The translations under genes were made by a program, and so were the position numbers. Under the pieces are notes generated by a model that worked only from the letters and a program-made list of their open reading frames with translations, ran no database searches and was not told where the DNA came from. A stretch of 64,000 nucleotides of DNA from an uncultured Gammaproteobacteria bacterium (lineage in GTDB: Bacteria > Patescibacteriota > Microgenomatia > Woykebacterales > RBG-16-39-9b). The stretch covers positions 281,512-345,511 of the forward strand of contig OZ246414.1 of NCBI GenBank assembly GCA_965231125.1, in the 5' to 3' direction. Below, piece after piece: positions 6,357 to 64,000 of this stretch (position 1 is its first letter; each line of letters begins with the position of its first letter).

Positions 6357-6539
6357 TCAAGATGGGAGGCCGGTGAGCCAGTTGAGGAAAGGTAAGCGGT
6401 GCTTTTCTATTGATAAATCTTCCAAGGCAATATTTTTCTTAGCCGTAAATTGAGAAATCATCTCAAAAGTGGCGGTTAGTTCCCTATTTAATACGTGGCC
6501 GTTATGAAAGTCAATAAAGTCAGCTACGTTTTCGATCAT
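6357..6539 (-). CDS. Small hypothetical protein, paralog of the gene at 8501-8692
   Basis: About 60 aa with a conserved C-terminus (AKKNIALEDLSIEKHRLPFLNWLTG). Differences from the paralog are mostly synonymous, which argues for real coding sequence. Confidence 0.5.
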   Translation of the reverse strand: MIENVADFIDFHNGHVLNRELTATFEMISQFTAKKNIALEDLSIEKHRLPFLNWLTGLPS

Positions 6540-6624
6540 TACCTTAAGTTTACTCCCATAATTCAAATAAGCAAGAGGCAGGAAAAATCTCAAGCGATAT
6601 TTTGTAACTTGCCAAGTGGTGGAT

Positions 6625-6653
6625 TGATTTTAGCCCTATAGTGTAGTATACTA
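6625..6653 (+). promoter_or_regulatory. Candidate sigma70 promoter for typA
   Basis: TTGATT, then a 17-nt spacer, then TATACT, about 55 nt upstream of the start. Confidence 0.3.
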
Positions 6654-6706
6654 TCTAAGTAGACTGGGTGTTTATCTTCCTTTATTAAAAAGAATAGAAA
6701 TTTAAT

Positions 6707-8491
6707 ATGAATAATATCAGAAACGTTGCTATCATTGCTCACGTCGATCACGGTAAGACCACTCTTGTCGATGCCTTGCTGCGACAAAGTAATACCAAGC
6801 TCCACAAAGATTTGGAGGGCACGAACCTAATAATGGATTCCAACGATCTTGAAAAAGAGCGCGGCATTACTATCTTTTCCAAAAACGCTTCGGTTGTTTG
6901 GAAGGGTACAAAGATAAATATCATTGATACCCCTGGGCATGCCGATTTTGGAGGAGAGGTCGAACGGGTCTTGAAAATGGCTGATGGGTGTCTACTGCTG
7001 GTTGACGCCAAGGAAGGCCCCATGCCGCAAACTCGTTTTGTCCTCAAAAGGGCTCTCGAACTCGGTCACAAAGTTGTGGTCGTTATAAACAAAGTGGACA
7101 AACCCGATGCTAGAGTCGAGTGGGTGGTGAATAAAACTTTTGATCTTTTCGTTGAACTTGGGGCCAGCGATGAGGCAGCTTTTTTCCCAATTGTTTACAC
7201 TTCAGCCAAAAAGGGATTGGCGGGAGTTGGGCCGGATTTAAATCAGATGAAAGATATCGCCCCAGTTTTTGAGGCAATCATCGAACACATCCCCGCCCCG
7301 ACCGGAGAAGCAAGTAAACCGTTGCAAATGTTGGTCACTACAATTCTCGGGGACAATTTTAAAGGACGGATCGCGACTTGTCGAATTTACAACGGTTCGA
7401 TAAAGTCCGGGCAGGAGGTTACTCATATAAACCGCGTCGGCGAAATGAAAAAAGTAAAGCTAACTGCCCTCATTGGCTTTTCCGGGTTGGATAAAATTGA
7501 TATTCTCGAGGCGGAAGCTGGAGACATTGTGGCGGTTGCCGGAATCGAAAATGTGAATATTGGTGAGACCATTGCTGATCCTAACGAAGCTGTCGCCTTA
7601 CCTCTTTTGGACATTGAAGAACCGACGATCAACATGACTTTTTCGGTAAACAGCTCTCCTTTTGCCGGAAAAGAAGGGCAGTTCAAGACTTCTCGGCAAA
7701 TTCGAGAGCGACTTTTCAAAGAACTCGAAACCGATATGGCTTTGAAGGTGGCAGATGGTGCAGACGGAGATTGGATTGTTTCTGGTCGAGGAGAACTACA
7801 TCTGGCTATTTTGATCGAAAGAATGCGTCGCGAAGGTTACGAATTTCAAGTGGCCCGGCCGCAAGTAATCACGAAAAAGATTAACGGCAGGACACTAGAG
7901 CCTTACGAAAAGGTTTTCATTGAGGCTCCGGAAGGCTATTCCGGGGTGATAATGCAAAAAATGGGAGAGCGCGGGGCTTTGTTGCAAGATATGAATACCG
8001 AAAATGGTGTTGTACAAGTAGAATTTATCATCCCAACCCGAAAACTATTTGGCTACCGTAGCGGGTTTCTTACCGACACCAAAGGGGAAGGTATTATCAA
8101 CACAGTGTTCCATGAATTTAGAGAAGATGCCGGTGGAATTTTTGAGAGAGGTCCTGGATCACTAGTTGCTTTTGAAGATGGTCCGACAACTTTGTATGGG
8201 TTAACCAATGCTCAAGAGCGTGGAACGCTCTTCCTAGGACCCGCTACCCCCGTCTACAAAGGCCAAGTTGTGGGACAGAATTCCCGGGGCGGAAATATTA
8301 AAGTGAATGTTTGCAAAGAAAAGCAACAGACCAACATGCGTTCTAGAGGCGAGGGAGTTGCAGAGCATTTCAATGCTCCCCAACCGATGGGTTTAGAGGA
8401 CGCCCTTGAATATATTGATGGTAGCGAGTTAGTAGAAATAACCCCGGAGAATATCCGAATCCGCAAAATCGATCTAAATTCTAAATATTAA
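6707..8491 (+). CDS. typA: Translational GTPase TypA/BipA
   Basis: Begins NIRNVAIIAHVDHGKTTLVDALL and carries the G1-G5 motifs, followed by EF-G-like domains. Length 594 aa. Confidence 0.95.
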   Translation: MNNIRNVAIIAHVDHGKTTLVDALLRQSNTKLHKDLEGTNLIMDSNDLEKERGITIFSKNASVVWKGTKINIIDTPGHADFGGEVERVLKMADGCLLLVDAKEGPMPQTRFVLKRALELGHKVVVVINKVDKPDARVEWVVNKTFDLFVELGASDEAAFFPIVYTSAKKGLAGVGPDLNQMKDIAPVFEAIIEHIPAPTGEASKPLQMLVTTILGDNFKGRIATCRIYNGSIKSGQEVTHINRVGEMKKVKLTALIGFSGLDKIDILEAEAGDIVAVAGIENVNIGETIADPNEAVALPLLDIEEPTINMTFSVNSSPFAGKEGQFKTSRQIRERLFKELETDMALKVADGADGDWIVSGRGELHLAILIERMRREGYEFQVARPQVITKKINGRTLEPYEKVFIEAPEGYSGVIMQKMGERGALLQDMNTENGVVQVEFIIPTRKLFGYRSGFLTDTKGEGIINTVFHEFREDAGGIFERGPGSLVAFEDGPTTLYGLTNAQERGTLFLGPATPVYKGQVVGQNSRGGNIKVNVCKEKQQTNMRSRGEGVAEHFNAPQPMGLEDALEYIDGSELVEITPENIRIRKIDLNSKY

Positions 8492-8500
8492 ACTAGCAGT

Positions 8501-8692
8501 TTAGATTTTTGAGCTGGAGAGTCCGGTGAGCCAGTTGATAAAAGGTAAGCGATGCTTCTCAATCGATAGATCTTCCAAAGCAATATTTTTCTTGGCTATA
8601 AAGCTAGAAATAGTTTCAAAACTTGCGTTTAATTCCGTATCTAATACGTGCTCGTTGTGGTAGGAGATAAATTCTTTTATATTTTGAGTCAC
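8501..8692 (-). CDS. Small hypothetical protein, paralog of the gene at 6357-6539
   Basis: 63 aa, ending in IEKHRLPFINWLTG, convergent with typA. About 75-80% nucleotide identity to the other copy. Confidence 0.5.
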   Translation of the reverse strand: MTQNIKEFISYHNEHVLDTELNASFETISSFIAKKNIALEDLSIEKHRLPFINWLTGLSSSKI

Positions 8693-8736
8693 GCCTTAAG
8701 TGTACTCCCCAAATCCAAATAAGCAATAGGCAGTTA

Positions 8737-8786
8737 AAACCCTCGCTTTTTGGATTCAAATCTGGTACAATCGTTTCCCTAAAATC
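8737..8786 (+). repeat. Conserved upstream module (AAACCnCGCTTTT..TCAA.T...CTAAAATC), copy 1
   Basis: Shares its core with elements at 10116-10193 and 10702-10782, and partly with 9596-9623. Lies about 40 nt upstream of the gene at 8827. Confidence 0.45.
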
Positions 8787-8826
8787 TAAAGTCCTTGCTT
8801 GTTCGTCATTCCTAAAGGAGGCAGAT

Positions 8827-9357
8827 GTGAAGGTTACTTTCATTTCGAGGGAGCCTGGGGTAAGGGCAAAGCTTCTCTATGGTGTTCGCCAAAGCGCCAT
8901 TTACACGGGTGTCGCTAACTTAACTGCCGGTAGGACTGCAGCCATTGTAATCTACTATCCGGATTCGGTTCTTCCAAAGATAGAGCAAATTCTTGGTTAC
9001 ATGGATGGGCAGAATCGTAATCCTGAAGTTCACATCGAGAAAATCGGGGAGAAAGCAAACGTCTATGTTATCTTCCGGGTGAACGTGGACCCAAACTTCA
9101 TCTTTGATCTTCTCGTCGATGAAGAAGTGGAGGGTATAGATTTTAAACAGGTAGGAAGGGAGAGTGTAATAGAGCTGCTTATGGTGGCGCAGGCTTCTAT
9201 CTCGAAAGGTAGCCTGGCGAATTTCTCGCAAGTGTTCGATCGAGACCAAAAGTTTGACGTTATCGTCGGCAGACCGATGGGGTATAGAAACGCCGAGCCT
9301 CGTTGGCAAAAGACGCTGGCTGTTTACGAACAGAAGGCGCCGAAACTTCCGGTTTGA
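8827..9357 (+). CDS. Hypothetical protein
   Basis: GTG start preceded by AAAGGAGG. 176 aa, no recognised domain. Confidence 0.5.
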   Translation: MKVTFISREPGVRAKLLYGVRQSAIYTGVANLTAGRTAAIVIYYPDSVLPKIEQILGYMDGQNRNPEVHIEKIGEKANVYVIFRVNVDPNFIFDLLVDEEVEGIDFKQVGRESVIELLMVAQASISKGSLANFSQVFDRDQKFDVIVGRPMGYRNAEPRWQKTLAVYEQKAPKLPV

Positions 9358-35489: not shown

Positions 35490-35990
35490 TTAGCGACTTA
35501 CACTAATCGTTGGAGGGCTGCCTTGGCCGTTTGGATCTTCAGCATTTGGTGCAGACACTGTCACTCTGTTCGCCGAGTTTTTCTTAACTGAGTAACCAGT
35601 ATCGTAAGGACTACTGCAGGTAGTGTAAGTGAAACCGCCACTTGGTAGTGGATCTGTTGGCAGCGCTGATAGGTAGGTTGGTACTAGATCAGAACAAATA
35701 TCTGCTCCGGTGTTGCTGACTACTGCGGAGGTTGTGGCGATGCCAGTCGGCAGTCGACCGTTTTCAGAATAAAATTGGCCAACTGCATTTAATAAGGCTA
35801 AAGCATCAGATCTTCGTTGGGTATTTCGCGCTAAAATAAATTGTCTTGGTGGGTTAACGGCGATTAAAACAATTGCGAGCAAAATAGCCAAAATTCCGAT
35901 TACAACTAAAAGTTCTATCAGGGTGAAACCTACCTGAGATTTTTTGTGAGAGGATTTTTTACTTGGGTTTGTTAAGGGCAGAAACATCAC
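35490..35990 (-). CDS. Type IV pilin (prepilin-type N-terminal cleavage/methylation domain)
   Basis: Class III signal: G, then FTLIELLVVIGILAIL. Confidence 0.75.
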   Translation of the reverse strand: MMFLPLTNPSKKSSHKKSQVGFTLIELLVVIGILAILLAIVLIAVNPPRQFILARNTQRRSDALALLNAVGQFYSENGRLPTGIATTSAVVSNTGADICSDLVPTYLSALPTDPLPSGGFTYTTCSSPYDTGYSVKKNSANRVTVSAPNAEDPNGQGSPPTISVSR

Positions 35991-37423
35991 TTTTTACCTA
36001 TAATTACCTGCGCATCTACCGCGGAAGAGTTTCCGATGGACCCCCCGTTAACTACAGTATATCTACTTGATAAATCCTTTGTCAAGAGAGATAGGTACTC
36101 TGTTTTGGATTTTTTAAGTCTAATTTCTGTTTTTATAAAGTTATAATTTGCTGCGTTGCCAGTGGAAACAACTCTGTAACCTTTTGCTTCAAGAAAATCT
36201 TTAGCTTCAGAAGCTGCTCCGGGTACGCCGTTGCCGTTTAGGACCTCAATTTTAAAGTCAGATCTTTTTAAGGCTACCTTAACAGCCGGTTTTTTTGCCG
36301 CCGCCGGTGTAGATTGTTTTGGTTTTTCCACTTTTGCGGAGGTACTGGCTGAGACACTTGCAGAAGTAGTAGACTGCCTAGCAGTGGAAACAGTCGACGG
36401 AACTTTTGTCGATTCATTTTTTGCCGCCGAGTTATTCAATACCTTGGATCCAAACCAAACCAGGAGTATAAGAATTAAAACCGTTGCGATAGCACCAAAA
36501 ATCATTTTCAAGTTGAGCTTTGGGAGTTCCACCGACTCAGCTGCTTTAACTAAGGTGTCTTTGATATGAAAAGCGGGTATTTGTTTTGGTAGACCGGCGG
36601 CAGCGGCTAGTTTCTTAAATCTAACTAAATCTTGGCTTGCAATAGCCACTTTACCTAGTGATATACCAAAAGGTTTAGCGGCAATACTGCCTTCTGTTAA
36701 AATATTAACAATTTCGTCTTCGTTTTCTCCAACTACCCAAGTCTCAAAATCGAGTTTTTCAGAAAGATTTTTAATCTCACTTGTGACGATTTCTTTAACC
36801 CAGCTGGTTAGCTTAGCTTTTTCGACAGCCGCCTCCTTAAACTTTTTGGTGGTGGTGAAGTAAATTCCACCTTCAAAGATTACAACAAGAAGAAGGGTTT
36901 CCCCCTCCATAGATAAAATCAAGGTTGGTTTAATAGCTTTTTCAAGAAACGGAAGGAAGATGGTGGGTTCCAAAACAATGGAGTGAATCTCTAAACCTAC
37001 TTCTTTAAAAAGTTTTTGATAGGCTGAGATTAAATCTCGTGGAGTTGCGGCAAGCTGAATGTTTTTATTCGGTAGTAGCCTCAAACTAGTAAAGCTTCCC
37101 GCAAGTGGGTAGGGAACTTCCTCTTGCAACTCGCGGTTTTTGAGAAGCTGCTCCTGGTCAGTGGCAATTTTCAGTACTTTTAGAAAACCAGCTTCTTCAC
37201 TGAGCAAAACTGTTATGGGATGCGATTTTAAAGAAGGATTTTGCTTAATAATGTCGGAAAGTTTTGATTTTACTTGCTCAAAGTTGACAATTGCGCCCTC
37301 TTCTATCAGCCCAGCCGGCAGTTCTTCATAGAAACCTTCCAAAATATCAAAACTAGAACCCTCTTTTTCAACTAAAGCAGCTTTTATAAATTTTTCCCTG
37401 AAACTGAAAATAATCTCTTTCAT
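35987..37423 (-). CDS. PilM-like type IV pilus assembly protein fused to a transmembrane segment and a LytR_C-like C-terminal domain
   Basis: Actin-like N-terminal ~330 aa, one transmembrane helix, a Ser/Thr-rich linker, then the LytR C-terminal pattern KIEVLNGNGVPGAA..A..L...GY.V. Confidence 0.5.
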   Translation of the reverse strand: MKEIIFSFREKFIKAALVEKEGSSFDILEGFYEELPAGLIEEGAIVNFEQVKSKLSDIIKQNPSLKSHPITVLLSEEAGFLKVLKIATDQEQLLKNRELQEEVPYPLAGSFTSLRLLPNKNIQLAATPRDLISAYQKLFKEVGLEIHSIVLEPTIFLPFLEKAIKPTLILSMEGETLLLVVIFEGGIYFTTTKKFKEAAVEKAKLTSWVKEIVTSEIKNLSEKLDFETWVVGENEDEIVNILTEGSIAAKPFGISLGKVAIASQDLVRFKKLAAAAGLPKQIPAFHIKDTLVKAAESVELPKLNLKMIFGAIATVLILILLVWFGSKVLNNSAAKNESTKVPSTVSTARQSTTSASVSASTSAKVEKPKQSTPAAAKKPAVKVALKRSDFKIEVLNGNGVPGAASEAKDFLEAKGYRVVSTGNAANYNFIKTEIRLKKSKTEYLSLLTKDLSSRYTVVNGGSIGNSSAVDAQVIIGKK

Positions 37424-37448
37424 AAGGAATAGTCTTCGCGTACTATTT

Positions 37449-37820
37449 TTAAGGCTTTTCTTTCCAGGATAGCACTTTAACTTGGCTCCCAGCTGTGTCG
37501 GCTGTTACTTCAAGTGTTCTGGTCTCATTGCTAGTTGAGGCCTCAGAATCGATAGTGTTTATTGTACCATTTTTGGCAATTGTAATATCAACGTTTACAC
37601 CATTTATAGACAGCGTGTCGTGTGAGTAATCTGGGTTCCTCAGCAGCCCTAACAAAGCTTCTTCCGCTCCGGATTCCGCCGCAAAGTAAACATTGTTTGA
37701 AACACCCGACCTGCCGGCCGTTTGCGAAAGGCTTGTTGCCACCAAGGAGGCGGCGAAAGCCAAACTGGCCACAGCCATAATTAACAAAATTGAAACTAAA
37801 GCTTGACCTTTTTGATTCAT
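37449..37820 (-). CDS. PilX-like minor pilin (hypothetical)
   Basis: Begins MNQKGQALVSILLIMAV, a PilX-style N-terminus. Confidence 0.4.
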   Translation of the reverse strand: MNQKGQALVSILLIMAVASLAFAASLVATSLSQTAGRSGVSNNVYFAAESGAEEALLGLLRNPDYSHDTLSINGVNVDITIAKNGTINTIDSEASTSNETRTLEVTADTAGSQVKVLSWKEKP

Positions 37821-38329
37821 CTTATACCTACCACTGTGTTAAAGTTTTGGGTTTTAGGACCCTCGGTTGAGCTTCCTGATAAGGTAAAATCAATCAACAC
37901 TGTGGGTTTTCCTTCGGCGCTACCAATACTCGTGAATTTTAAATTTGAAGCAGTAACTAGACTTCCGGTTATGGGTACTGCCGAGCTTGCAGGTGCTTGT
38001 AAATTTATTTCTGGTCCGGAAAGCGAGTAGATGTAATTATCCGCCCCGATTTTTAAGTTTAAGATTGAGCCGGAATCTCCGGGACTGCCCGGGCTGACGA
38101 TCTTATCCGCCCGTCGTATATCGTAAGCTAGCCTTTCTAGAACGAAATTTCCTTCAATCACAACACTACTTTTTGATTTAGATTCTAAAAAGCTTTCCGA
38201 AATTGACAAAAAGAGGTTAGTAATTATCAAAAGAATCACGGACAGAAGTCCAAAGTAGACTATTATTTCTATAAGAGTAAACCCGTCTAAATTTTTTCTA
38301 CTAAGTTTTGTTTGAGACTTAATTTTCAT
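37817..38329 (-). CDS. Prepilin-type minor pilin/pseudopilin
   Basis: G, then FTLIEIIVYFGLLSVIL. Confidence 0.6.
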   Translation of the reverse strand: MKIKSQTKLSRKNLDGFTLIEIIVYFGLLSVILLIITNLFLSISESFLESKSKSSVVIEGNFVLERLAYDIRRADKIVSPGSPGDSGSILNLKIGADNYIYSLSGPEINLQAPASSAVPITGSLVTASNLKFTSIGSAEGKPTVLIDFTLSGSSTEGPKTQNFNTVVGIR

Positions 38330-38331
38330 AA

Positions 38332-40206
38332 TTACGGAGAATAATTAACGCTCGTGTTTTGTAAAATTGGTGTAGCGTTTCCACCGCTAGTAAAGGTTAC
38401 TTTGTATCTGAAGTATTGGCCACTCACATAACTGAGTGGTATGGAGGCCGGATTTTGGTAGGATGTGCTATTTGTTCCATCAGGTCCAACCCAGTTCCAC
38501 GTTGCGTTGTTATTATTCGTGGCTATTTGGAAGGCTAGGCTTGTACCAGCCGGCACTTGGGCTGTCCAATTTAAGTAATTAAATCCAGCGTTTGCTCCCG
38601 CGTCAAAAGTTGGGGATTCATATGTTCCGAAGTTTTGGAAGCCAACTGAACTACTACCCGAAACAATTTGAAGCTCAGCTGAATTTGCTGAAGAGGCTAA
38701 GTACGCATAGCCATTAAATATTGCGACAGCTAAGGCGTCAGCTCCAAGGTTAATAGAGCTATAAATGAAAGAGCTGCCTGGCACATTAAGATCAATAATC
38801 TTCAACTGCGAGCCAGTTTGTCCGTTAGCTACAAAAGCAAGACTGCCAGAAACATACACGCTATAAGCGGTTCCACCGACCCCGTAGGTCCGCACAAGAT
38901 TTATGTTTGGAAGGTTACTAACATTTAAAACATAGACATTAGAACCAGCTGCAAGGTATGCTGTACCGTCTACAACATAGACACTTAGGGCGGCAAAAGG
39001 TCCGGAGGTGTTGTAATAGCCCACCACCGATGGCTGGGCAGGGTTGGAGATATTGAGAACTTTGAGTTCAGCTGTATTACTGGTTGAGGCAACGTAAGCG
39101 AAATTACCCGAGATGAACGCATCTCTTGTGGTAGACCCCAAGTCCGTACCACCTATCAGATTAGGTGCCACTGGGTTAGAGACATCAATAGTGTAAAACT
39201 CATAACCTGGTGCAGCAGTATTATTATTTGTAACCAAATAGACCGTGCTACCCGACGAAGCAACGCTGCGAGCATCACTATTTGAGGACGGGGTATCAAA
39301 GTGATTTCCGTAGAGTTTTGGATTTGTCGGGTCAGATACGTCTACAACTGTAAGTTCCCGGTGATCGTCAGAGGTAGCGATGTAGGCGTAATTTTCGGAA
39401 ACAACCACAGAATGACCTGTGGATCCAAGGTCCAGAGACCCCAAAAGGGTTGGGCTTGTGCCGGTGGTCGTGTCATAAATAAAGAAGTCGGCTCCAGACC
39501 TAGACTCTGTTACTAAGTAGGCTTTTCCACAGCTAACAAATACATCAAGAGCGTCCTGCGGTCCGGGAAAGTCCCTACTCGCTATTATAGTAAGCGATTT
39601 CCAATTGGTAACGGGAGCTGAAAGCAGCTGAATTTCCCCACCACTGGTATTGGTCACTTTGGTGCAGACAGTTGACCCCTTTAAGAAGTCAGTGTCACTA
39701 GTCTGCTGCCAAGTGGTGTTACCTAAGTACCGGGTTAAATAAAAAGTTTGGCCTACACTTCCGCCAAAAAAGGAAGCCCATGAGGTAGTTACGGTTACCT
39801 TTTTGGTGGAAGGATCCACGCGCCCCGTAGGGCATTCAACTAGGGCGTTGGAGTTGTCACGACAAGCAGAGGCTAAATTGATTTGTCTGGTAAGGCCAGA
39901 TACCGTCTCTGGTCCTAAAACTAAACTCCACCTTGTACCCGTATTAACCACATGGTAAGTACCATTTTTTAAATTTCCCCAACCCCCTTCCCTTACGGAT
40001 CGTACGGCTTCCGCCTGCATAAGAGCCGAAGTTTGCGCTGTTAGAATATTCGCCGCTTGATCGCGATTTTCCCTCACGCCTATCAGTAGTAGGCCGACGC
40101 TACCTAAAACAATAATTAATATTCCAAAACCAACAACGAGTTCCACCAAAGCCTGACCTTTGTTTTCGTTAAAAGACTCTAGTCCAGCTAGCCTGCTAAT
40201 TAACAT
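38332..40206 (-). CDS. Large minor pilin / pilus-tip protein with an LVIVD-repeat beta-propeller
   Basis: Prepilin-like N-terminus (KGQALVELVVGFGILII) and at least five repeats of the form ELTVVDVSDPTNP / ELKVLNISNPAQP / EFYTIDVSNPVAP (LVIVD repeats). Confidence 0.55.
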   Translation of the reverse strand: MLISRLAGLESFNENKGQALVELVVGFGILIIVLGSVGLLLIGVRENRDQAANILTAQTSALMQAEAVRSVREGGWGNLKNGTYHVVNTGTRWSLVLGPETVSGLTRQINLASACRDNSNALVECPTGRVDPSTKKVTVTTSWASFFGGSVGQTFYLTRYLGNTTWQQTSDTDFLKGSTVCTKVTNTSGGEIQLLSAPVTNWKSLTIIASRDFPGPQDALDVFVSCGKAYLVTESRSGADFFIYDTTTGTSPTLLGSLDLGSTGHSVVVSENYAYIATSDDHRELTVVDVSDPTNPKLYGNHFDTPSSNSDARSVASSGSTVYLVTNNNTAAPGYEFYTIDVSNPVAPNLIGGTDLGSTTRDAFISGNFAYVASTSNTAELKVLNISNPAQPSVVGYYNTSGPFAALSVYVVDGTAYLAAGSNVYVLNVSNLPNINLVRTYGVGGTAYSVYVSGSLAFVANGQTGSQLKIIDLNVPGSSFIYSSINLGADALAVAIFNGYAYLASSANSAELQIVSGSSSVGFQNFGTYESPTFDAGANAGFNYLNWTAQVPAGTSLAFQIATNNNNATWNWVGPDGTNSTSYQNPASIPLSYVSGQYFRYKVTFTSGGNATPILQNTSVNYSP

Positions 40207-40642
40207 TTACAGCTCCAAATCTGTTTATTGTAAAAGTTTTGGTTTCGCCAGAGGCGCTTTTTAAAATAAAACTTCCGCCGGAAGTTTCTCCAGATAACCT
40301 TGAAAAGAGCACGTTACCTCCCGGTGCGTTAATCGATTCAATTGATAGGCTAGGATCCAGTGTGGTAACCAAGTTAGTACTGCTACTTGGGTTGTAAGAA
40401 CTACCGTCGAAAAGAACAAATTTACCCCTGTCAAAATGGACGCCGGAAGTTTCTTGTCCTGAGGCCGCCAAATTCTGGGCTTCTTTCAAAGTGACGTAGA
40501 TCAGATTTTCGCTGGAACTTATATCAGCAAAAGCTTTTGGTCTGCTAAGATTTACTAAAAGCAACGTGCTAATAATTGAAAACAGAGCGACAGCAACCAT
40601 TAGCTCCACTAAAGTAAACCCTTTTGAGGCACCAGACTTCAT
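40196..40642 (-). CDS. Prepilin-type pseudopilin
   Basis: KGFTLVELMVAVALFSII. Confidence 0.6.
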   Translation of the reverse strand: MKSGASKGFTLVELMVAVALFSIISTLLLVNLSRPKAFADISSSENLIYVTLKEAQNLAASGQETSGVHFDRGKFVLFDGSSYNPSSSTNLVTTLDPSLSIESINAPGGNVLFSRLSGETSGGSFILKSASGETKTFTINRFGAVNVN

Positions 40643-41727
40643 GTTGGGTTTATTTGAGAAATAAGTTGATAAATTGGTGCTATGATTGATAGTATTACGG
40701 CGGCAACAATAACACCAACAATAATAATCAGGGCAGGTTCTAAAACTACAGAAAATGATTTAATTTCTCTTTCAAGTTTATCTTGGTAGTAAACCGAAAC
40801 TTCGGACAAAACTTTATCTAGATTACCAGTTTTTTCTCCGGTCCCGATTATCCGGCTCATAAGCGCGGGAAAAGTTTTATATTCTCTTAAAGAGCCGGCT
40901 AGAGATTTACCCCCCGTTAGTTTGTGGGCTACTTCTCCCAACTCTTCTTTGGTAGTCTTGTTAACTACAACTGTCGTTGCCCTTTCGACACCCTCTATAA
41001 TTGGTACACCAGCTGATAGAAGAAGAGCTAAGGTGGAGGAGAATCTTGATAGGTCGACATATCTTAAAATGCCACTAAAAAAAGGTAGGCGGAAGCCTAA
41101 AGTTATGATCCTTTCTCTAAAAGATTTGTTTGAGAATAGAAATAATGTTAGGGCAGCTAAGATAGCGATTCCTAGACCAAAGATTAGATAGTATCTATGA
41201 ATCGATAAAGCGACTGCCAAAAATATTCTTGTCGGAAGAGGTTTGGGAACATTTAAGCGCGTAAATATTACAGCGACTCTTGGGACAACAAAACCAAAAA
41301 GTACCACTAAGACAACTGCTAGAACTCCCAAGACTATTGCTGGGTAAAGCATAGCTGCCTTTACGTCACTCTTCAGCTTATCAATATCTCTAAGGTTTTT
41401 GACTAGTTGCAAAAGTACTTTGTCTAAATTTCCACTTTCCTCACCGGCTTTTACCGTATTTATAAAAATTGGGTCGAATATAGCGGGAAACTGGGAAAAA
41501 CTTTCCGCAAGGCTCTGCCCCGATTGGACGGAATCTATAACAGCGCCAATTACAGATTTTGAGTTTTTCGAGAGAGAATCGTCTTTAACTGCTTCAAGAG
41601 CTTCTAGTATAGGGATACCGGAAGAAAGCATAATTGACAAACTCTCGATGAACGTAAGCTTTTCGATAAAGGGAAGCCGAAGCTTTTGAGGAATTATTTT
41701 TGGTTTTTTATCTTCGTTATTTGGCAT
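40639..41727 (-). CDS. pilC: Type IV pilus platform protein PilC (GspF family)
   Basis: Two T2SSF-type repeats and three transmembrane helices. 362 aa. Confidence 0.85.
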   Translation of the reverse strand: MPNNEDKKPKIIPQKLRLPFIEKLTFIESLSIMLSSGIPILEALEAVKDDSLSKNSKSVIGAVIDSVQSGQSLAESFSQFPAIFDPIFINTVKAGEESGNLDKVLLQLVKNLRDIDKLKSDVKAAMLYPAIVLGVLAVVLVVLFGFVVPRVAVIFTRLNVPKPLPTRIFLAVALSIHRYYLIFGLGIAILAALTLFLFSNKSFRERIITLGFRLPFFSGILRYVDLSRFSSTLALLLSAGVPIIEGVERATTVVVNKTTKEELGEVAHKLTGGKSLAGSLREYKTFPALMSRIIGTGEKTGNLDKVLSEVSVYYQDKLEREIKSFSVVLEPALIIIVGVIVAAVILSIIAPIYQLISQINPT

Positions 41728-41741
41728 TTGGGCAAGTCCTA

Positions 41742-43427
41742 CTACTCTCTAACCGCCTGAATCACTTCTTCGATTGTGGTCAGTCCGGACGCAACTTTTG
41801 CAAGGCCATCCTCAACCATCAGTTTAAAACCTTCAGCGTGAGCTACTTCCAGAATTTTTTGAATAGAAGCTTTTTCAAAAATTAATTTTTTAATATTTTC
41901 GCTTACCTCTAAAACCTCAAAAATACCGATCCGCCCTCTAAAACCCGTCCCGGAACACTCTTGACAACCCTTGCCTCGCCTGGCCTCAACTGTTCCACCC
42001 AAAAATGGGGCAACCACTTCTTTACCAAATTCTGTGGCCAGGCCCTGGAGAACCTCCTCTTTAATAACATCTTTTACCAAACAAGACGAGCAGTTTCGAG
42101 CAACCAGCCGTTGGGATATAACCAAATTTAAAGTAGAACCAATTAGATATGGTTGGGCTCCCAGATCGTAAAGCCGGGGAATTGTGCTGATAGCATCGTT
42201 AGTGTGAAGTGAAGAGAGCACAAGGTGTCCAGTCAAGGCGGAATGAATAGCAATTTCTGCCGTCTCCTCGTCTCTTATCTCACCAACTAATATGACGTTG
42301 GGGTCGTGACGAAGTATTGATCGTAGTCCTGAAGCGAAAGTTAGGCCGGCTTTTGGATTTATCTGCATTTGGTTTACCCTAGTCAATCCGTATTCTATCG
42401 GGTCTTCAATTGTACAGATATTAACTCCGGCGGTATTTATTAAAGTTAGTATGTTATATAAAGTTGTGGTCTTTCCGCTTCCCGTCGGGCCGGTGGAAAG
42501 AACCATACCGTGAGATTTTTGAATACCTTCTTTTACTAATTGTAAATTGGCTCCGGTTAAACCCAAGTCTTCTAGAGTTTTAGGGCGGGCGGCTGCCGAG
42601 AGAAGGCGTAAAACAGCATCTTCTCCATGAAAAGTTGGCAGCACCGAAACCCTAACCGATATTTCATCGGTTCTGTGTTTAAAACGAAATCTTCCGTCTT
42701 GAGGAGTTCGATGTTCGTCGGTTCTTAGATTAGACAATATTTTTATGCGGGTTATCAATCCGGCTTGAATACTCTCTGGCAGATCTAAAACATCGCGGAG
42801 TTTCCCATCTACTCTGAAGCGGATAATTATTTTTTCGCCGATGTTTTCAATATGGATGTCGCTCGCTCTTTCCGAGGCACCAAACTCCAAAATCGTGTCT
42901 AAAATTTTCACGACCGGAAGATCTTCACCACCCAAAGAAGAGTCCTTAGCGCCAGTAAGGTTTTCCTCGACTGTCTTTTGGAAATCTTTCTTTATATCCG
43001 CGTTGTATTGATCCAAAAGCTCATTAATTATCGATGGTAGGGTAAAATAGACTTCGACTGGCCCTCTCAATTTTTTCTTAACAAAGTCGACTGTTTCAGG
43101 ATCCTGCGGATTTTCGAAGGCCACTTTGAGTTTTGAGCCTTCTTTATCAAAAACCGCAGCCCTCTTCTTAGTGGCTACTTCCTCTGGTAAAAGATCACGG
43201 ATTTCTTTTTTGATAACGCGGTCACGAAGGTCTGCGTATGGGTATCCGGCTGCCTCCGCCAAAATTTGGCCGAGAAATTTTTCTAAAATCACACCCCGCT
43301 CAATTAGTTCGTCACTTAGAGGTTTCCCAAGGTCAGTTGCAGCTTTTTCAGCCTCGGCTAGTTCTGCCGGATCTACCAATCCGGATTTGAGAATAAGTTT
43401 CTTAAGTTCATCATTTTCAAGTATCAT
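41742..43427 (-). CDS. pilB: Type IV pilus assembly ATPase PilB (GspE family)
   Basis: Walker A GPTGSGKTTT, Asp and His boxes, and a tetracysteine motif CSSC...CQEC. Confidence 0.9.
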   Translation of the reverse strand: MILENDELKKLILKSGLVDPAELAEAEKAATDLGKPLSDELIERGVILEKFLGQILAEAAGYPYADLRDRVIKKEIRDLLPEEVATKKRAAVFDKEGSKLKVAFENPQDPETVDFVKKKLRGPVEVYFTLPSIINELLDQYNADIKKDFQKTVEENLTGAKDSSLGGEDLPVVKILDTILEFGASERASDIHIENIGEKIIIRFRVDGKLRDVLDLPESIQAGLITRIKILSNLRTDEHRTPQDGRFRFKHRTDEISVRVSVLPTFHGEDAVLRLLSAAARPKTLEDLGLTGANLQLVKEGIQKSHGMVLSTGPTGSGKTTTLYNILTLINTAGVNICTIEDPIEYGLTRVNQMQINPKAGLTFASGLRSILRHDPNVILVGEIRDEETAEIAIHSALTGHLVLSSLHTNDAISTIPRLYDLGAQPYLIGSTLNLVISQRLVARNCSSCLVKDVIKEEVLQGLATEFGKEVVAPFLGGTVEARRGKGCQECSGTGFRGRIGIFEVLEVSENIKKLIFEKASIQKILEVAHAEGFKLMVEDGLAKVASGLTTIEEVIQAVRE

Positions 43428-59197: not shown

Positions 59198-59672
59198 AAT
59201 GAAGTGTCCGTATTGTTCAAATTTTGATACAGCCGTGATGGATTCGCGAGATAGCGAAGATCTTTCCTCTATTCGCCGGCGTCGAGAGTGTCTTAAGTGC
59301 GGCAAGCGTTTTACTACTTACGAGAGAATAGAAATGATCGATCTGGCTATTTTGAAAAAAGATGGCCGTCGGGAAAATTTCGATCGAGTGAAACTTATTA
59401 ACGGGTTAAAAAAGGCAACTGAAAAGCGTCCGGTTAGTGTGGAACAAGTCGAAGATACAGCGGATGCTATTGAGCGGGAGTTGCGAAGGAGAGATACGAT
59501 TGAGATTCCCAGCACCGTAGTTGGTGAGATTGTTATGCGAAAGCTAAAAGCTTTGGATAAAGTAGCGTACATCCGCTTTGCAAGCGTCTACCGAAGTTTC
59601 GAAGATGTCGAGTCTTTTGAGAAAGAAATTAAAAATCTTTTAAATAAAAAAGGAGGACCTGCTCATGCCTAA
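59198..59672 (+). CDS. nrdR: Transcriptional repressor NrdR
   Basis: Zinc ribbon at the start (MKCPYCS...CLKCGKRF) followed by an ATP-cone. The track start at 59112 is an extension. Confidence 0.85.
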
Positions 59673-62268
59673 GGTAAAACAAGGAATCCGCCCGCCGGCC
59701 GGTCGGGCAGGGACAGCGGCGTCTATAGAGAAGTTTCATTTTAACCCTAAGCTCCAAACCGATCTTGAAGGTTTGGTCGACGACCCAAACCAAACTCAAT
59801 TGGAAGGGGTAAGAGAAACAGTTTTCCGCGACCGCTACTCCTTGAAGGATGCCGACGGCAACCCAGTCGAGGAACATCCTGAACAGATGTGGAGAAGGGT
59901 TGCTGCCGGCATTGCGCAAGTCGAAAAAAGTTCCGCCAATCAGAAAGAGTGGGCCGGAAAATTTTACGAAGCCTTAGACGACTTTAAGTTTGTTCCCGGG
60001 GGCCGGATTCTTTCTGGGGCCGGCACTCCCTACGAAGTAACTTTCTATAATTGTTTTGTTATCCCTTCTCCACACGACTCACGAGACGGAATTATCGACA
60101 ATCTAAAAATTATGGTAGATATTATGAGCCGCTCCGGTGGAGTGGGCATTAACCTTTCTTCACTTCGTCCTAGGGGGGCCCGAGTCCGCAAGGTAAACGG
60201 GACAAGCTCTGGACCAGTGAATTGGGCCGAGCTTTACTCCACCGCCACTCACGATGTTATCCAGCAAGGAGGCACTCGCCGCGGCGCTTTAATGCTGATG
60301 CTTAATGATTGGCACCCCGACATCGAGGAATTTATTGACGTGAAGAAAGACCTTTCCCGCATTAACGGTGCCAACCTATCCGTCTGCGTTTCCGACTCTT
60401 TCATGGAGGCAGTTAAAAACGATAAGGATTGGAACTTGGTTTTCCCTGATATTTCTGATCCGGATTACGACAAAGCCTGGGATGGGGATTTGGAAAAATG
60501 GGAAAGTTTAGGTAAGAAACCGGCTCTTTACAAAACAGTCAAGGCCGCCCAAATTTGGGAGAAAATTTGTCAAGCAGCTTGGGCATCCGCGGAACCAGGG
60601 CTTCACTTTATTGAGAGAAGTAATAAAAGAAGCAACACTTGGTATTTTGAAAAATTAATTTCCACTAACCCTTGTGGTGAGCAGCCGTTAGGGGCCTGGG
60701 CAGTATGTAATCTTGGTTCGGTAAGTCTACCCGCTTTTATCAAACCCTCGGCAAGCTCGGGTCAGAATGAGATGGATTATGAAAAACTTTACGAGACGGT
60801 AAAGACTGCAATCCGCTTTATGGATAACGTTATCAGTGCGACTGGTTACTACTACGATGAGAATCGAAAACAGCAGGCAGGGATTCGCCGCGTTGGGCTT
60901 TCCGGGATGGGGCTGGGGGACGCTTTAATTATGCTAAAGCAAAAGTATGGATCCAAAGAGGCCGAGCCGACAGTGGAAAAGATTTATAAAACAATCAGAG
61001 ACGCTTCTTACGAGGCAAGTGTCGAACTTGCTGCCGAAAAAGGAGCTTTCCCAAACTTTGATAAGGAAAAATACCTGCAAGGTTGGTTCATCAAGAAACT
61101 TCCCGAGAGCATCCGAACGAAGATCAAAAAATACGGTATCCGCAACGCCGTGCTTCTTACCCAAGCTCCGACCGGAACCACATCCTTGCTTGCGGGCGTT
61201 TCTTCGGGGATCGAACCAGTTTATGATTTCGCCATGATTCGTCGCGACCGTACCGGCGAACACGTGATTTACCACCCTGCCTATAAAGAGTGGCTGGATT
61301 CTCACCCGGACGAAGACCCACCAGACTATTTTGTGGCGGCAAACGATCTAACTCCGGAAGATCACGTAAACATCCAAGCAATTGTTCAAGAATATACGGA
61401 CTCCTCAATTTCTAAGACAGTCAATGCCCCTAATGCCCACACCGTGGAAGAAGTCCGAAAGCTTTACATGTGGGCTTACGATCTGGGTTGCAAGGGTGTC
61501 ACTTACATGAGGGATGGTTCTCGTGAAGGAGTTCTTTCCCACGGTGATAAGAGGGAAGATGCTAACGCCGAGAATGGTCACGTCAAAGAGCAAGTGCCGG
61601 TTCACCTGCGAAAGCGGCCGCATTACCTAACAGGAGTAACCCGCCGAATTCCGACCCCAGTTGGGCACGCCTTTGTCACTATTAATGAAGATGAAGGCGG
61701 GGACCCGTTTGAAGTTTTTGTCAATGTCGGCAAAGCCGGGAGCGACATTACGGCCGACGCCGAAGCAATCGGTCGGTTAATATCCCTCGCACTTCGCATT
61801 CCGACTGGCTACGCTCCTAAAGAAGTTGCCCAACAAGTGGTGAATCAGCTTTCTGGAATCGGCGGTAGCCGGCAACAAGGGTTTGGTGCCAACAGGGTCC
61901 ACTCGTTGGCCGATGCGCTTTCTAAGGTTCTGTCAGAATATTTGGGCTCGGAAAGCACTTATCCGGAAGTTGCCGAAAATGGAAACGGTAACGGTCACGC
62001 GAAACCAAACGGTAATGGCAAGACGGTGCATGTTGAGAACCCAACACCCGCGGACGTGCCGGAGTTAACCGATCCACCTGCCTCGCCAGATGCGAGTCAG
62101 GGAGATCCTTCTCCTAGTGTCGGTGAAGTGGCCGCTCTGGCGGCAAGTGAAACTGGCGCGCATCTTAGTGAGGTGAGACGGGATATTTGTCCATCCTGTG
62201 GAGTAGCGAGTTTTGTTTACGAAGAAGGCTGTAAAAAGTGCTACTCTTGTGGACACTCGGAATGTTGA
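59665..62268 (+). CDS. nrdJ: Class II (adenosylcobalamin-dependent) ribonucleotide reductase
   Basis: Active-site region NPCGEQPL and a C-terminal zinc finger (CPSCG...CKKCYSCG). 867 aa. Confidence 0.8.
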   Translation: MPKVKQGIRPPAGRAGTAASIEKFHFNPKLQTDLEGLVDDPNQTQLEGVRETVFRDRYSLKDADGNPVEEHPEQMWRRVAAGIAQVEKSSANQKEWAGKFYEALDDFKFVPGGRILSGAGTPYEVTFYNCFVIPSPHDSRDGIIDNLKIMVDIMSRSGGVGINLSSLRPRGARVRKVNGTSSGPVNWAELYSTATHDVIQQGGTRRGALMLMLNDWHPDIEEFIDVKKDLSRINGANLSVCVSDSFMEAVKNDKDWNLVFPDISDPDYDKAWDGDLEKWESLGKKPALYKTVKAAQIWEKICQAAWASAEPGLHFIERSNKRSNTWYFEKLISTNPCGEQPLGAWAVCNLGSVSLPAFIKPSASSGQNEMDYEKLYETVKTAIRFMDNVISATGYYYDENRKQQAGIRRVGLSGMGLGDALIMLKQKYGSKEAEPTVEKIYKTIRDASYEASVELAAEKGAFPNFDKEKYLQGWFIKKLPESIRTKIKKYGIRNAVLLTQAPTGTTSLLAGVSSGIEPVYDFAMIRRDRTGEHVIYHPAYKEWLDSHPDEDPPDYFVAANDLTPEDHVNIQAIVQEYTDSSISKTVNAPNAHTVEEVRKLYMWAYDLGCKGVTYMRDGSREGVLSHGDKREDANAENGHVKEQVPVHLRKRPHYLTGVTRRIPTPVGHAFVTINEDEGGDPFEVFVNVGKAGSDITADAEAIGRLISLALRIPTGYAPKEVAQQVVNQLSGIGGSRQQGFGANRVHSLADALSKVLSEYLGSESTYPEVAENGNGNGHAKPNGNGKTVHVENPTPADVPELTDPPASPDASQGDPSPSVGEVAALAASETGAHLSEVRRDICPSCGVASFVYEEGCKKCYSCGHSEC

Positions 62269-62279
62269 GGTGATTTGAA

Positions 62280-62573
62280 TTGGATTGGTATCAGTGGCAA
62301 ATAAAGACTAAGGGTAGTTGTGAATATTGCGAAAGACCTTTTACCTCTTCGAATCGTAAAACTATAGACCACATAATCCCAAAAGGAAAAGGTGGGTCCT
62401 ATAAAAAAGAGACTTGGAATTTAATTGCCGCTTGTATCGAATGCAACTCAAGAAAAGGCAACTATATAAGCTATTCAATTGGGTGGGTAATAGGGAACAG
62501 AGAATTACTAATTGAGGATATTAAATCAAACAAGTTAAAAATAAGAATTGACAGAGCGATAGTAAGCAAGTAA
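62280..62573 (+). CDS. HNH endonuclease
   Basis: CEYC...DHIIPK..GG...WNL.AAC..CN..K. 97 aa. Confidence 0.65.
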   Translation: MDWYQWQIKTKGSCEYCERPFTSSNRKTIDHIIPKGKGGSYKKETWNLIAACIECNSRKGNYISYSIGWVIGNRELLIEDIKSNKLKIRIDRAIVSK

Positions 62574-62595
62574 TGTATTGTTACATTAACAAGTA

Positions 62596-62742
62596 AGGTC
62601 AAAGGAATACGGGTGAAGCACGGTGTAAATCCGTGGGAGTGCCGCTACTGTAAACCCAGAACCCCGCCTTTGAATCCCTTCGAGCAAAGGAGGTGAAAAA
62701 TCACTTAGGATTTAAACCAGCCAACTTTGCGGCTGGTTTTTT
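62596..62742 (+). ncRNA. Cobalamin riboswitch-like leader (assigned from memory, not verified) with a terminator expression platform
   Basis: GGTGAAGCACGGTGTAAATCCGTG...GCCGCTACTGTAAACC resembles the cobalamin-riboswitch core as I recall it. It is followed by the hairpin CCAGCC..GGCTGG plus T6 (62717-62742), directly upstream of the DUF4430 gene. Confidence 0.5.
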
Positions 62743-62753
62743 GGTGGTAAAAT

Positions 62754-63206
62754 ATGAAAAATCAACAAAGAAATTGGATAATTGCGGCAGTTATAGTTAT
62801 TTTGGCCCTAGTTGGTGGTTATTTTGTATTAACCAATTTAGGGAACAATAAGACACCTTCAACCCCAACTTCTCAAGAGCAAGTAAAGGGAGTTCAAGTT
62901 GAAGTAACCATCGACTATTCTGGCGAACAAGGTAAATCCCTAGAAACAAGGACGGTGAATGTTACCGAAGGCAAGACTGCTTGGGATGCACTGGTTGTGG
63001 ATGTAGGCAAGGAAAATATTGACTATAAAGATTATGGTAGCCTTGGTGTACTTGTGTTGGGGATTAATGGTGTAAAACCAACTGGTAACAACTCTTGGGA
63101 ATTCCAGGTAAACGGGAAGGCTGCCCCAGTGGGAGTTAGCAGTTACAAAGTGAAATCTAGTGACAAAATTGGATTTGTGATTACGCAAGCCAGTAAAGGT
63201 CAGTAA
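62754..63206 (+). CDS. DUF4430 domain protein (putative cobalamin-binding, lipid/membrane-anchored)
   Basis: N-terminal transmembrane or signal segment. TAWDAL...SWEFQVNGK pattern. Confidence 0.55.
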   Translation: MKNQQRNWIIAAVIVILALVGGYFVLTNLGNNKTPSTPTSQEQVKGVQVEVTIDYSGEQGKSLETRTVNVTEGKTAWDALVVDVGKENIDYKDYGSLGVLVLGINGVKPTGNNSWEFQVNGKAAPVGVSSYKVKSSDKIGFVITQASKGQ

Positions 63207-63267
63207 GACCTTACCCGCGGCGCCGCGGGAATCCCGCGGCGCCGGCTATATAATTACTAGTAATACT

Positions 63268-63864
63268 ATGAAAAACTTGGAAAAATTAGTCAGTCCCTTG
63301 TTAATTATAACTGCCGCTGTCGGGCTTCGGCTTATTTCTCATATGCCGAATTTTGCGCCAATTAGCGCGATGGCCCTTTTTGGTGGGGCGTATTTGGGCA
63401 AGCGTTGGGCACTGATTGTGCCGATTGTTGCAATGCTAATTTCTGATTATCTCGTTCTCTATATAAACCCCTTTAGAGTTCCAATGTTGGGTTTTAGCCA
63501 CATTTACGCGCCATTGGACTTAATACACGGTACTACATATGCGGTTTACGGAAGTTTTTTAATTTCAGGGCTAGTCGGTTTGTGGTTGCGCAGTCACAAA
63601 AACCCGACCAGCATAGCTGCCGCCGCCCTTTTTTCTTCACTACAGTTTTTCTTAATAACTAACGCTGCGGTTTGGCTTGGAGGAGGTTACAACGGGGGTC
63701 TTTTGGGCCTTTGGGAAAGCTATGTTGCTGGGTTACCATTTTTTAGAGGGACTTTGTTTGGAGATTTCTTTTACACAGGACTATTTTTCGGCGGGTTTGA
63801 AGCTTTAAAATGGTTTGTGTTTGATAGGAAAAAAGCTATAATAAACGCGGAGGTGAAAGTTTAA
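63268..63864 (+). CDS. Integral membrane protein, possible vitamin-uptake substrate-capture component
   Basis: Five to six transmembrane helices. Co-transcribed with the DUF4430 gene behind the riboswitch. Functional assignment is weak. Confidence 0.45.
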   Translation: MKNLEKLVSPLLIITAAVGLRLISHMPNFAPISAMALFGGAYLGKRWALIVPIVAMLISDYLVLYINPFRVPMLGFSHIYAPLDLIHGTTYAVYGSFLISGLVGLWLRSHKNPTSIAAAALFSSLQFFLITNAAVWLGGGYNGGLLGLWESYVAGLPFFRGTLFGDFFYTGLFFGGFEALKWFVFDRKKAIINAEVKV

Positions 63865-64000
63865 TGACTGAAAAGACAGAAGATTTTAAAGTTCGTGGTG
63901 AAGAAGTTGTTAAAAAAGTTAAAGAATTGATTAAGGAAGGCAACGTCCGCCGGGTTACAATTAAAGATAAAGAAGGAAAGGTAATTGCGGAGTTTCCTTT
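63864..64000 (+). CDS. DUF4342-like protein, N-terminal fragment (continues beyond the window)
   Basis: MTEKTEDFKVRGEEVVKKVKELIKEGNVRRVTIKDKEGKVIAEFP. Confidence 0.35.
   Translation, partial: MTEKTEDFKVRGEEVVKKVKELIKEGNVRRVTIKDKEGKVIAEFP

Follow-up and report, generated by a model that had tools for sequence, protein, structure and literature searches.

Cobalamin (vitamin B12) transporters with the S-component fold include BtuM of Thiobacillus denitrificans (PDB 8OVV), whose family has as its hallmark an invariant cysteine acting as cobalt ligand, Cys80 in that protein (PMC6072759), and the energy-coupling factor (ECF) transporter ECF-CbrT of Lactobacillus delbrueckii, whose structure is PDB 6FNP (PMC5997447). 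Among binding proteins, transcobalamin, intrinsic factor and haptocorrin hold B12 with a C-terminal beta-domain next to an alpha (alpha/alpha-barrel) domain, and vertebrate short transcobalamin-like proteins made of DUF4430 only are known (PMC4350170). On the RNA side, the class-II cobalamin riboswitches (RF01689, formerly 'AdoCbl-variant', with env8HyCbl as prototype) have a short aptamer without the large P6 extension, and their loop L13, which has conserved unpaired purines, makes a cobalamin-dependent kissing loop with L5 (PMC5028336); members range from methylcobalamin-selective to adenosylcobalamin (AdoCbl)-selective (PMC6158498). Here, a 64-kb window (contig OZ246414.1 of assembly GCA_965231125.1, positions 281,512 to 345,511; positions below count from its first letter) was studied, in which an RF01689 leader precedes the genes of a DUF4430 protein and a DUF6580 membrane protein, next to nrdJ. 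The locus is probably an operon for the import of cobalamin that cobalamin itself represses, and it directly follows the gene of the cofactor-requiring class II ribonucleotide reductase (RNR). An original prediction, made from the DNA letters, had pointed to this arrangement; its observation of the locus was confirmed and its interpretation was supported, with the refinements given below.

A covariance-model search had been set beforehand as the decisive check of the predicted cobalamin-riboswitch core in the leader at 62596-62742. The whole window was scanned against all 4,227 Rfam families with cmscan at the gathering-score cut-off, and RF01689 (AdoCbl-II) matched with 39.3 bits against a gathering score of 36.5 (E 7.7e-6), over model positions 1-81 of 81. 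This was the sole Rfam match reaching its gathering score in the window. It was recovered on a 1.2-kb local region (E 1.4e-7), where other local matches (MEG8_3, snoRNAs, mir-4766 and a group-II fragment) fell far under their own gathering scores and were dismissed as chance. The conserved aptamer core is GCCGCUACUG. The RNA is a member of RF01689, of the short class-II type; it is an ordinary addition to that known class and brings little new by itself.

For comparison, 80 species-representative DUF6580 loci (476 kb in total) were scanned against Rfam at the gathering score. Homologous aptamers occupy the same position in related loci, although the margin of the window aptamer over the gathering score is only 2.8 bits and orthologous leaders lie just under the threshold at the expected position (L008, 34.8; L048, 36.1; L004, 29.1 bits). 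These low scores are what a chance or decayed match would give, with genes that are constitutive or reached by read-through from nrdJ. Such a reading has hardly any chance in view of the E value obtained for the whole window against all families, the full-model coverage, the presence across many species of a conserved core, P13 loop and terminator at the orthologous position, and the orientation of the riboswitches in the related loci, all 35 of which are on the DUF6580 strand and none opposite. By eye, locus L025 carries apparent tandem class-II aptamers (1166-1239 and about 1315-1400), each with a CGAGCA hairpin, of which only the first reached the gathering score.

As in env8, the hairpin P13 comes after P1, here via a 3-nt linker (62674-62676). 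Its loop L13, CGAGCA on a CCUU/AAGG stem, contains G-A-G, comparable to G96-A97-G98 of env8 (PMC5028336). When 24 AdoCbl-II leaders out of related loci were compared, this loop or a one-base variant was found directly 3' of the aptamer in all of them, on stems that varied (CC/GG, CCUU/AAGG, CUUC/GAAG and UCU/AGA). In an alignment of nine close leaders (the window, L008, L015, L016, L030, L032, L086, L088 and L092), 88.9% of the P13 cells were paired. By analogy with the class, L13 is presumed to be the kissing partner of the aptamer loop L5 (UGCCG). The differences are in the output: env8 has its ribosome-binding site within L13 and is controlled at translation, whereas L13 of the window is not a ribosome-binding site, its P13 would compete with a candidate antiterminator, and an intrinsic terminator follows.

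This terminator, in minimum-energy folds, consists of a 9-bp stem (62714-62722 with 62731-62739), the 8-nt loop AACUUUGC and a U-tract (U6) running to 62742. It ends 12 nt before the ATG at 62754, and the Shine-Dalgarno sequence GGUGG (62743-62747) lies between the U-tract and the start codon. In the nine leaders, 97.5% of its cells were paired and two pairs were changed on both sides, from AU to GC, so that the Rho-independent terminator predicted to close the leader stands on both folding and compensatory changes. A consensus scanner gave a negative result at 62714-62742, which was overruled by the folding and the alignment; we think that it counted the first three U's into the stem and was left with too few for its tail rule. 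The same aptamer-P13-terminator layout is present in close relatives, and 37 of 38 functional cobalamin riboswitches tested elsewhere had a predicted terminator (PMC9600662).

The candidate antiterminator is formed by GCAAAG..GGU (62684-62694), that is, the 3' half of P13 and beyond, with GCC..CUUUGC (62720-62730), the inner 5' strand of the terminator plus its loop. This helix is the minimum-energy fold of a transcript cut before the terminator 3' strand (-12.4 kcal/mol). It was pairable in 100% of 81 cells in the nine leaders, compared with 30-53% when the 3' partner was slid, and such a pairing would explain why the terminator loop, (C/U)UUUG(C/U), is so unusually conserved. In a second leader subgroup (e.g., L019), CCCGAG..AGGA and UCCU..CUCGGG, read from the sequences, suggest the same logic. 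When B12 is scarce, the antiterminator would pair and block the terminator, and transcription would proceed into the DUF4430 and DUF6580 genes; when B12 is bound, the L5-L13 kissing loop would lock P13, the terminator would form and transcription would stop.

The same riboswitch could instead act mainly on translation, with the hairpin, or a pairing of 62700-62705 with 62743-62748, hiding the ribosome-binding site and premature termination not being the main effect. The minimum-energy fold of a longer leader does pair 62700-62705 (AUCACU) with the Shine-Dalgarno region (GGUGGU) around the terminator, and many other leaders carry GGAG or AGGA in the terminator 3' strand, 6-7 nt before the ATG. 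In L023, L033 and L051, which have no terminator, P13 immediately precedes the ATG and its 3' strand contains AGGA, which implies that some members of the group are under translational control, as is the class prototype env8HyCbl (PMC5028336). In the window, however, the canonical 9-bp hairpin with U6 is conserved with compensatory changes, the Shine-Dalgarno sequence is outside the hairpin, and the 62700/62743 pairing is not conserved in close leaders, the U-tract of L008 running straight into the ATG. Mainly translational control is thus regarded as unlikely here, though it keeps an appreciable chance, and a B12-OFF transcription-termination switch is favoured, of which the antiterminator and the kissing loop are the parts that we infer.

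Upstream of the aptamer, TTGACA-17 nt-TAATGT is a possible promoter. It is under the threshold of the promoter scanner and its -10 hexamer has three of six matches; at the same relative position, the paralogous leader of L004 has TTGACA-17-TAAAAT.

The first gene after the leader encodes a protein of 150 residues that matched PF14478 (DUF4430) with 35.6 bits (cut-off 23.8). In its predicted structure, blocks over residues 41-140 average 81-97 in pLDDT (the predicted local confidence), with values of about 90 or above over residues 45-147, and they are preceded by a low-confidence helix (residues 4-26) and a low-confidence linker, which is rich in Ser, Thr and Pro. Since there is no cysteine near the N-terminus, the helix is taken as a signal anchor and the protein not as a lipoprotein. 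A Foldseek search of the model against the PDB gave 19 matches with E <= 0.001 (2.6e-8 to 7.5e-6), all of them transcobalamin, haptocorrin, intrinsic factor or 3U7Z. The alignments with the three B12 carriers were all on the beta-domain, and 3U7Z is a DUF4430 protein. A nine-sequence DUF4430 profile had the haptocorrin beta-domain as its best match among PDB sequences (E 0.0084). Single-sequence searches of the DUF4430 and DUF6580 proteins against PDB sequences gave nothing meaningful; only the profiles gave matches, and NCBIfam has no model for either protein. The predicted DUF4430 protein with a membrane anchor was borne out, and from its model it is presumed to be an extracellular B12 binder. 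By fold and profile it resembles the C-terminal B12-binding domain of the transcobalamin family; it differs from these carriers in lacking the alpha domain and in being membrane-anchored instead. BtuH of Bacteroides was considered as a relative and set aside; the literature found on it deals with DUF4465 and other folds.

The second gene encodes a protein of 198 residues that matched PF20221 (DUF6580) with 162.1 bits (cut-off 27) and for which the NCBI name is 'DUF6580 family putative transport protein'. Its predicted model is an all-helical membrane protein with the six-helix fold of S-components; the closest solved structure is BtuM, and ranks 2-15 are other S-components. None of the S-component sequence families (PF12822, PF07155 and others) matched, and Pfam at E <= 0.01 gave DUF6580 only. 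The original prediction of a B12-scavenging, ECF/BtuM-like membrane protein holds for the fold, with BtuM as the closest structure, but not at the level of sequence, where the protein falls in no ECF or BtuM family.

With BtuM, DUF6580 shares the S-component fold and the co-localisation with B12 uptake genes. Identity to BtuM is only 15%, a profile of DUF6580 found no BtuM among PDB sequences at E <= 10, and DUF6580 comes paired with a DUF4430 binder. In addition, the window protein contains no cysteine, and in 36 homologues no column that is invariant or nearly so is a cysteine; lacking the residue that defines the BtuM family, DUF6580 does not belong to it. Arg21, His25, Asn28 and Asp166, which are invariant in the 36 homologues, are candidate ligand contacts judging from their conservation.

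The relation to CbrT is of another kind. The 36-member DUF6580 profile matched a single chain among PDB sequences, 6FNP_A (E 0.02), which has 182 residues and is labelled 'Membrane protein' in the ECF-CbrT entry. It was taken as CbrT because its close homologues match PF12822 and PF07155, one of them being NCBI-named 'ECF transporter S component'. A comparison of DUF6580 with CbrT-like fragments by hhalign reached 65% probability over 57 columns, and both carry the motif R..PNxxP[IV]T where helix 1 ends, so a remote similarity between these two B12-linked S-component-type proteins is suggested, at a marginal level. However, CbrT-like proteins fall in PF12822/PF07155, neither of which the window DUF6580 matches, and CbrT needs an EcfAA'T module, of which there is none among the recurrent families beside DUF6580: no ABC (ATP-binding cassette) ATPase or EcfT family recurs in the 80 loci. 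DUF6580 may work alone, like BtuM, or dock to a shared ECF ATPase module, like CbrT, yet it should not be filed under either.

The genomic context was then considered across the comparison set, for which the neighbouring open reading frames (ORFs) were clustered and the cluster representatives annotated with Pfam. The DUF6580 family comprises 5,837 clusters (50% identity) at E <= 1e-3, and the relatives of the window protein are nearly all from Patescibacteria (candidate phyla radiation, CPR). At least one B12-linked neighbour was present in 66 of the 80 loci. A DUF4430-type gene lay directly upstream of DUF6580 in 56, or in 43 when counted by single-sequence phmmer, which is given as well because the iterated DUF4430 hidden Markov model (HMM) drifted into low-complexity linkers and transmembrane segments of the locus ORFs. 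Other neighbours were NrdJ (29/80), adenosyltransferases of the PduO type (22/80) and of the CobA type (4/80), and a BtuF-type Peripla_BP_2 protein (3/80). Cobalamin riboswitches reached the gathering score in 35 loci, 28 of them upstream of the operon and seven downstream (six directly after PduO and, in L067, directly after DUF6580). The order met most frequently in CPR is NrdJ > riboswitch > DUF4430 > DUF6580 > PduO, which the window follows without the PduO gene. The proposed physical link of B12 uptake with class II RNR is thereby conserved across many Patescibacteria. A gene-context pattern of the same kind of evidence led to BtuM (PMC6072759), and here it strongly favours DUF6580 as a cytoplasmic-membrane corrinoid transporter.

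Import of something other than complete cobalamin, such as cobalt (as by CbiM) or a corrinoid precursor (cobinamide), as well as sequestration or export of corrinoids by the pair, was also weighed and found improbable, with a small chance left. The partner domain is transcobalamin-beta-like and not metal-binding, the recurrent neighbours are corrinoid adenosyltransferase, NrdJ, BtuF-type protein and TonB-dependent receptor, no cob/cbi gene is among the recurrent families in the 80 neighbourhoods, and cobalt would be of little use without corrin synthesis.

In diderm relatives (Ignavibacteria/Chlorobi; 4/80 loci), a TonB-dependent receptor takes the place of DUF4430 beside DUF6580, which mirrors the BtuB-BtuM pairing. 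The receptor adjoins DUF6580 directly in L062 (685-2925) and L065 (972-2900), with one or two genes between in L066 and L084, and that of L065 is preceded by an RF00174 riboswitch (79.6 bits).

A second operon with a paralogous DUF6580, 60% identical, is found in another region of the same genome (L004, 7926-12194). Its genes are, in order, a DUF4430-like protein of 206 residues, a squalene-cyclase-like (alpha/alpha toroid) protein of 418 residues, DUF6580, a BtuF-type Peripla_BP_2 protein and a Diphthami_syn_2-like ATP-binding protein. The leader of this operon combines an AdoCbl-II aptamer below threshold (29.1 bits, E 0.011) with a P13 bearing the loop CGAGCA and with a terminator. Operons of this 'type B' carry a separate protein of 420-700 residues with squalene-cyclase-like repeats between the DUF4430 protein and DUF6580, and the toroid and DUF4430 proteins of L004 recall the two domains of transcobalamin. 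The Diphthami_syn_2-like protein (PF01902) stands beside DUF6580 in L004, L062, L066 and L083, together with a BtuF-type protein or a TonB-dependent receptor; we know of no role for it in B12 handling.

A second cobalamin riboswitch was observed after PduO in six loci (L013, 4163-4240; L022, 4160-4237; L041, 1318-1526; L042, 4142-4218; L046, 4019-4095; L057, 2463-2536). It precedes conserved genes without a Pfam match, of about 450-500, about 165 and at least 250 residues, which presumably have further B12-related functions; homologues of this gene set were not found in the window.

The enzyme encoded upstream of the leader matched TIGR02504 (NrdJ_Z) at the equivalog level, with 569.3 bits (cut-off 399.95). 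The DNA of its own genome that was examined amounts to about 98 kb of 915 kb, namely the window, what L001 adds to the window, and L004. Searching the window, L001 and L004 with an HMM from 30 NrdJ neighbours, blind to NrdB and NrdD, brought up no further RNR catalytic subunit, and no NrdD-like ORF was seen in the window judging by length and N-terminal sequence. As predicted, the sole visible RNR is of class II, and NrdJ would probably use the B12 that is imported. In L001, the same locus in a JGI assembly, nrdJ is called as two ORFs of 212 and 658 residues (6400-9001), where the window has one intact ORF of 867 residues; the split is probably an assembly frameshift. From general knowledge of CPR genomes, the organism may be unable to make B12, and no cob/cbi genes were among the called genes in the DNA examined. 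A survey reported most vitamin pathways missing in metagenome-assembled genomes of Patescibacteria and listed cobalamin modules among the exceptions (PMC8672522); our guess is that these reflect salvage and adenosylation steps.

Once the operon is expressed, the DUF4430 protein, tethered outside the membrane by its N-terminal helix and flexible linker, would capture cobalamin with the transcobalamin-beta-like domain and pass it to DUF6580, which would move it across the membrane; after adenosylation, it could serve NrdJ. Besides the narrow score margin of the aptamer, several points weigh against this account. L5 and L13 are both nearly invariant among leaders and offer no covariation for the kissing loop. 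The antiterminator shows one-sided changes only, with no compensatory ones, in the nine leaders, and it takes up just three of the nine terminator stem pairs plus the loop. No adenosyltransferase was seen in the 98 kb or so of the genome covered. S-components normally bind their substrate themselves, without an extracellular binding protein, which makes the hand-off from DUF4430 to DUF6580 a conjecture. Finally, no mention of DUF6580 was found in the literature searched, which also gave nothing relevant on PF20221, PF14478 or B12 uptake in CPR.

Table 1. Features of the locus in the 64-kb window.
Feature	Position	Strand	Basis or remark
nrdR, probable true start 59199 (mechanical ORF from 59112)	59199-59672	+	TIGR00244, 195 bits
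nrdJ, class II (adenosylcobalamin-dependent) RNR	59665-62268	+	TIGR02504
Free-standing HNH endonuclease ORF, 97 aa, TTG start	62280-62573	+	PF01844, 48 bits; PF14279, 45.9 bits
Possible promoter	62548-62576	+	Read from sequence; ends 22 nt before P1
Class-II cobalamin riboswitch aptamer, P1 to P1	62599-62673	+	RF01689 (AdoCbl-II)
P13 hairpin with loop L13	62677-62690	+	24-leader comparison
Candidate antiterminator	62684-62730	+	Folding, 9-leader alignment
Intrinsic terminator	62714-62742	+	Minimum-energy folds
DUF4430 protein (presumed binder): N-terminal anchor, linker, transcobalamin-beta-like domain	62754-63206	+	PF14478
GC-rich intercistronic hairpin, 12 bp, between DUF4430 and DUF6580 genes	63218-63244	+	Folding
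DUF6580 membrane protein with S-component fold (presumed B12 transporter)	63268-63864	+	PF20221
DUF4342 gene start, runs off the window	63864-64000	+	PF14242, 48.8 bits on 45 visible residues

Other features lie in and around the operon (Table 1). The start of nrdR was placed downstream of the mechanical one since the Zn_ribbon_NrdR Pfam match begins at ORF residue 30. The HNH ORF is squeezed in after the nrdJ stop codon, ahead of the promoter region of the riboswitch. Since that spot is empty or holds an unrelated small ORF in related loci, the ORF appears to be a lineage-specific insertion beside the RNR gene. The range of the original prediction, 62280-63864, takes in this HNH ORF, which does not belong to the B12 module.

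The hairpin between the two operon genes folds with -31.2 kcal/mol (z -4.19), and none of 200 shuffles folded as well. An equally strong hairpin of unrelated sequence occupies the same gene junction in L088 (1360-1408). A dispersed repeat was rejected, the sequence being unique in the window. The hairpin may set the expression ratio of binder to transporter via mRNA stability or partial termination.

At the other end, the stop codon of DUF6580 and the ATG of the DUF4342 gene share bases (TAATG, from 63862), which suggests translational coupling, and the gene is probably co-transcribed with DUF6580. The full-length protein from L001 (79 residues) scored 101 bits against PF14242, and DUF4342 also follows DUF6580 in L009 (3548-3829), a Woykebacteria locus. 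Apart from the operon, a minus-strand gene run at 35490-43427 resembles, by eye, a cluster for type IV pili or competence; its genes have N-termini of the pseudopilin type (GFTLIE motifs) and include large ORFs that are ATPase-like and platform-like. A DUF4430 HMM match within it (35987-37423, E 1.6e-6) was considered spurious.

Together, DUF4430 and DUF6580 are predicted from their context to form a B12 uptake system that is widespread and as yet uncharacterised. A bolder reading, held tentatively and on balance doubtful, is that the pair forms a distinct and widespread B12 importer without an ECF module, in which a tethered transcobalamin-beta-like protein feeds a cysteine-free S-component-like transporter whose His25/Arg21/Asn28 cluster might serve transport; in type B operons the tethered protein and its toroid partner would together make up a split bacterial transcobalamin, and the pair would be the main route of CPR to the cofactor of their only RNR.

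All the DNA precursors of many Patescibacteria seem to come from an enzyme that requires B12, and to our knowledge the way in which these bacteria obtain B12 has not been described. With conserved counterparts in dozens of species, the locus suggests that B12 enters through a specific pair of small proteins that are amenable to experiment. DUF6580 would add a third, sequence-distinct family to the B12 transporters with the S-component fold, after BtuM and CbrT, with a different ligand chemistry and an external binder. In addition, the transcobalamin-like domain, together with its toroid partner in the paralogous operons, may bear on the bacterial ancestry of the animal B12 carriers.

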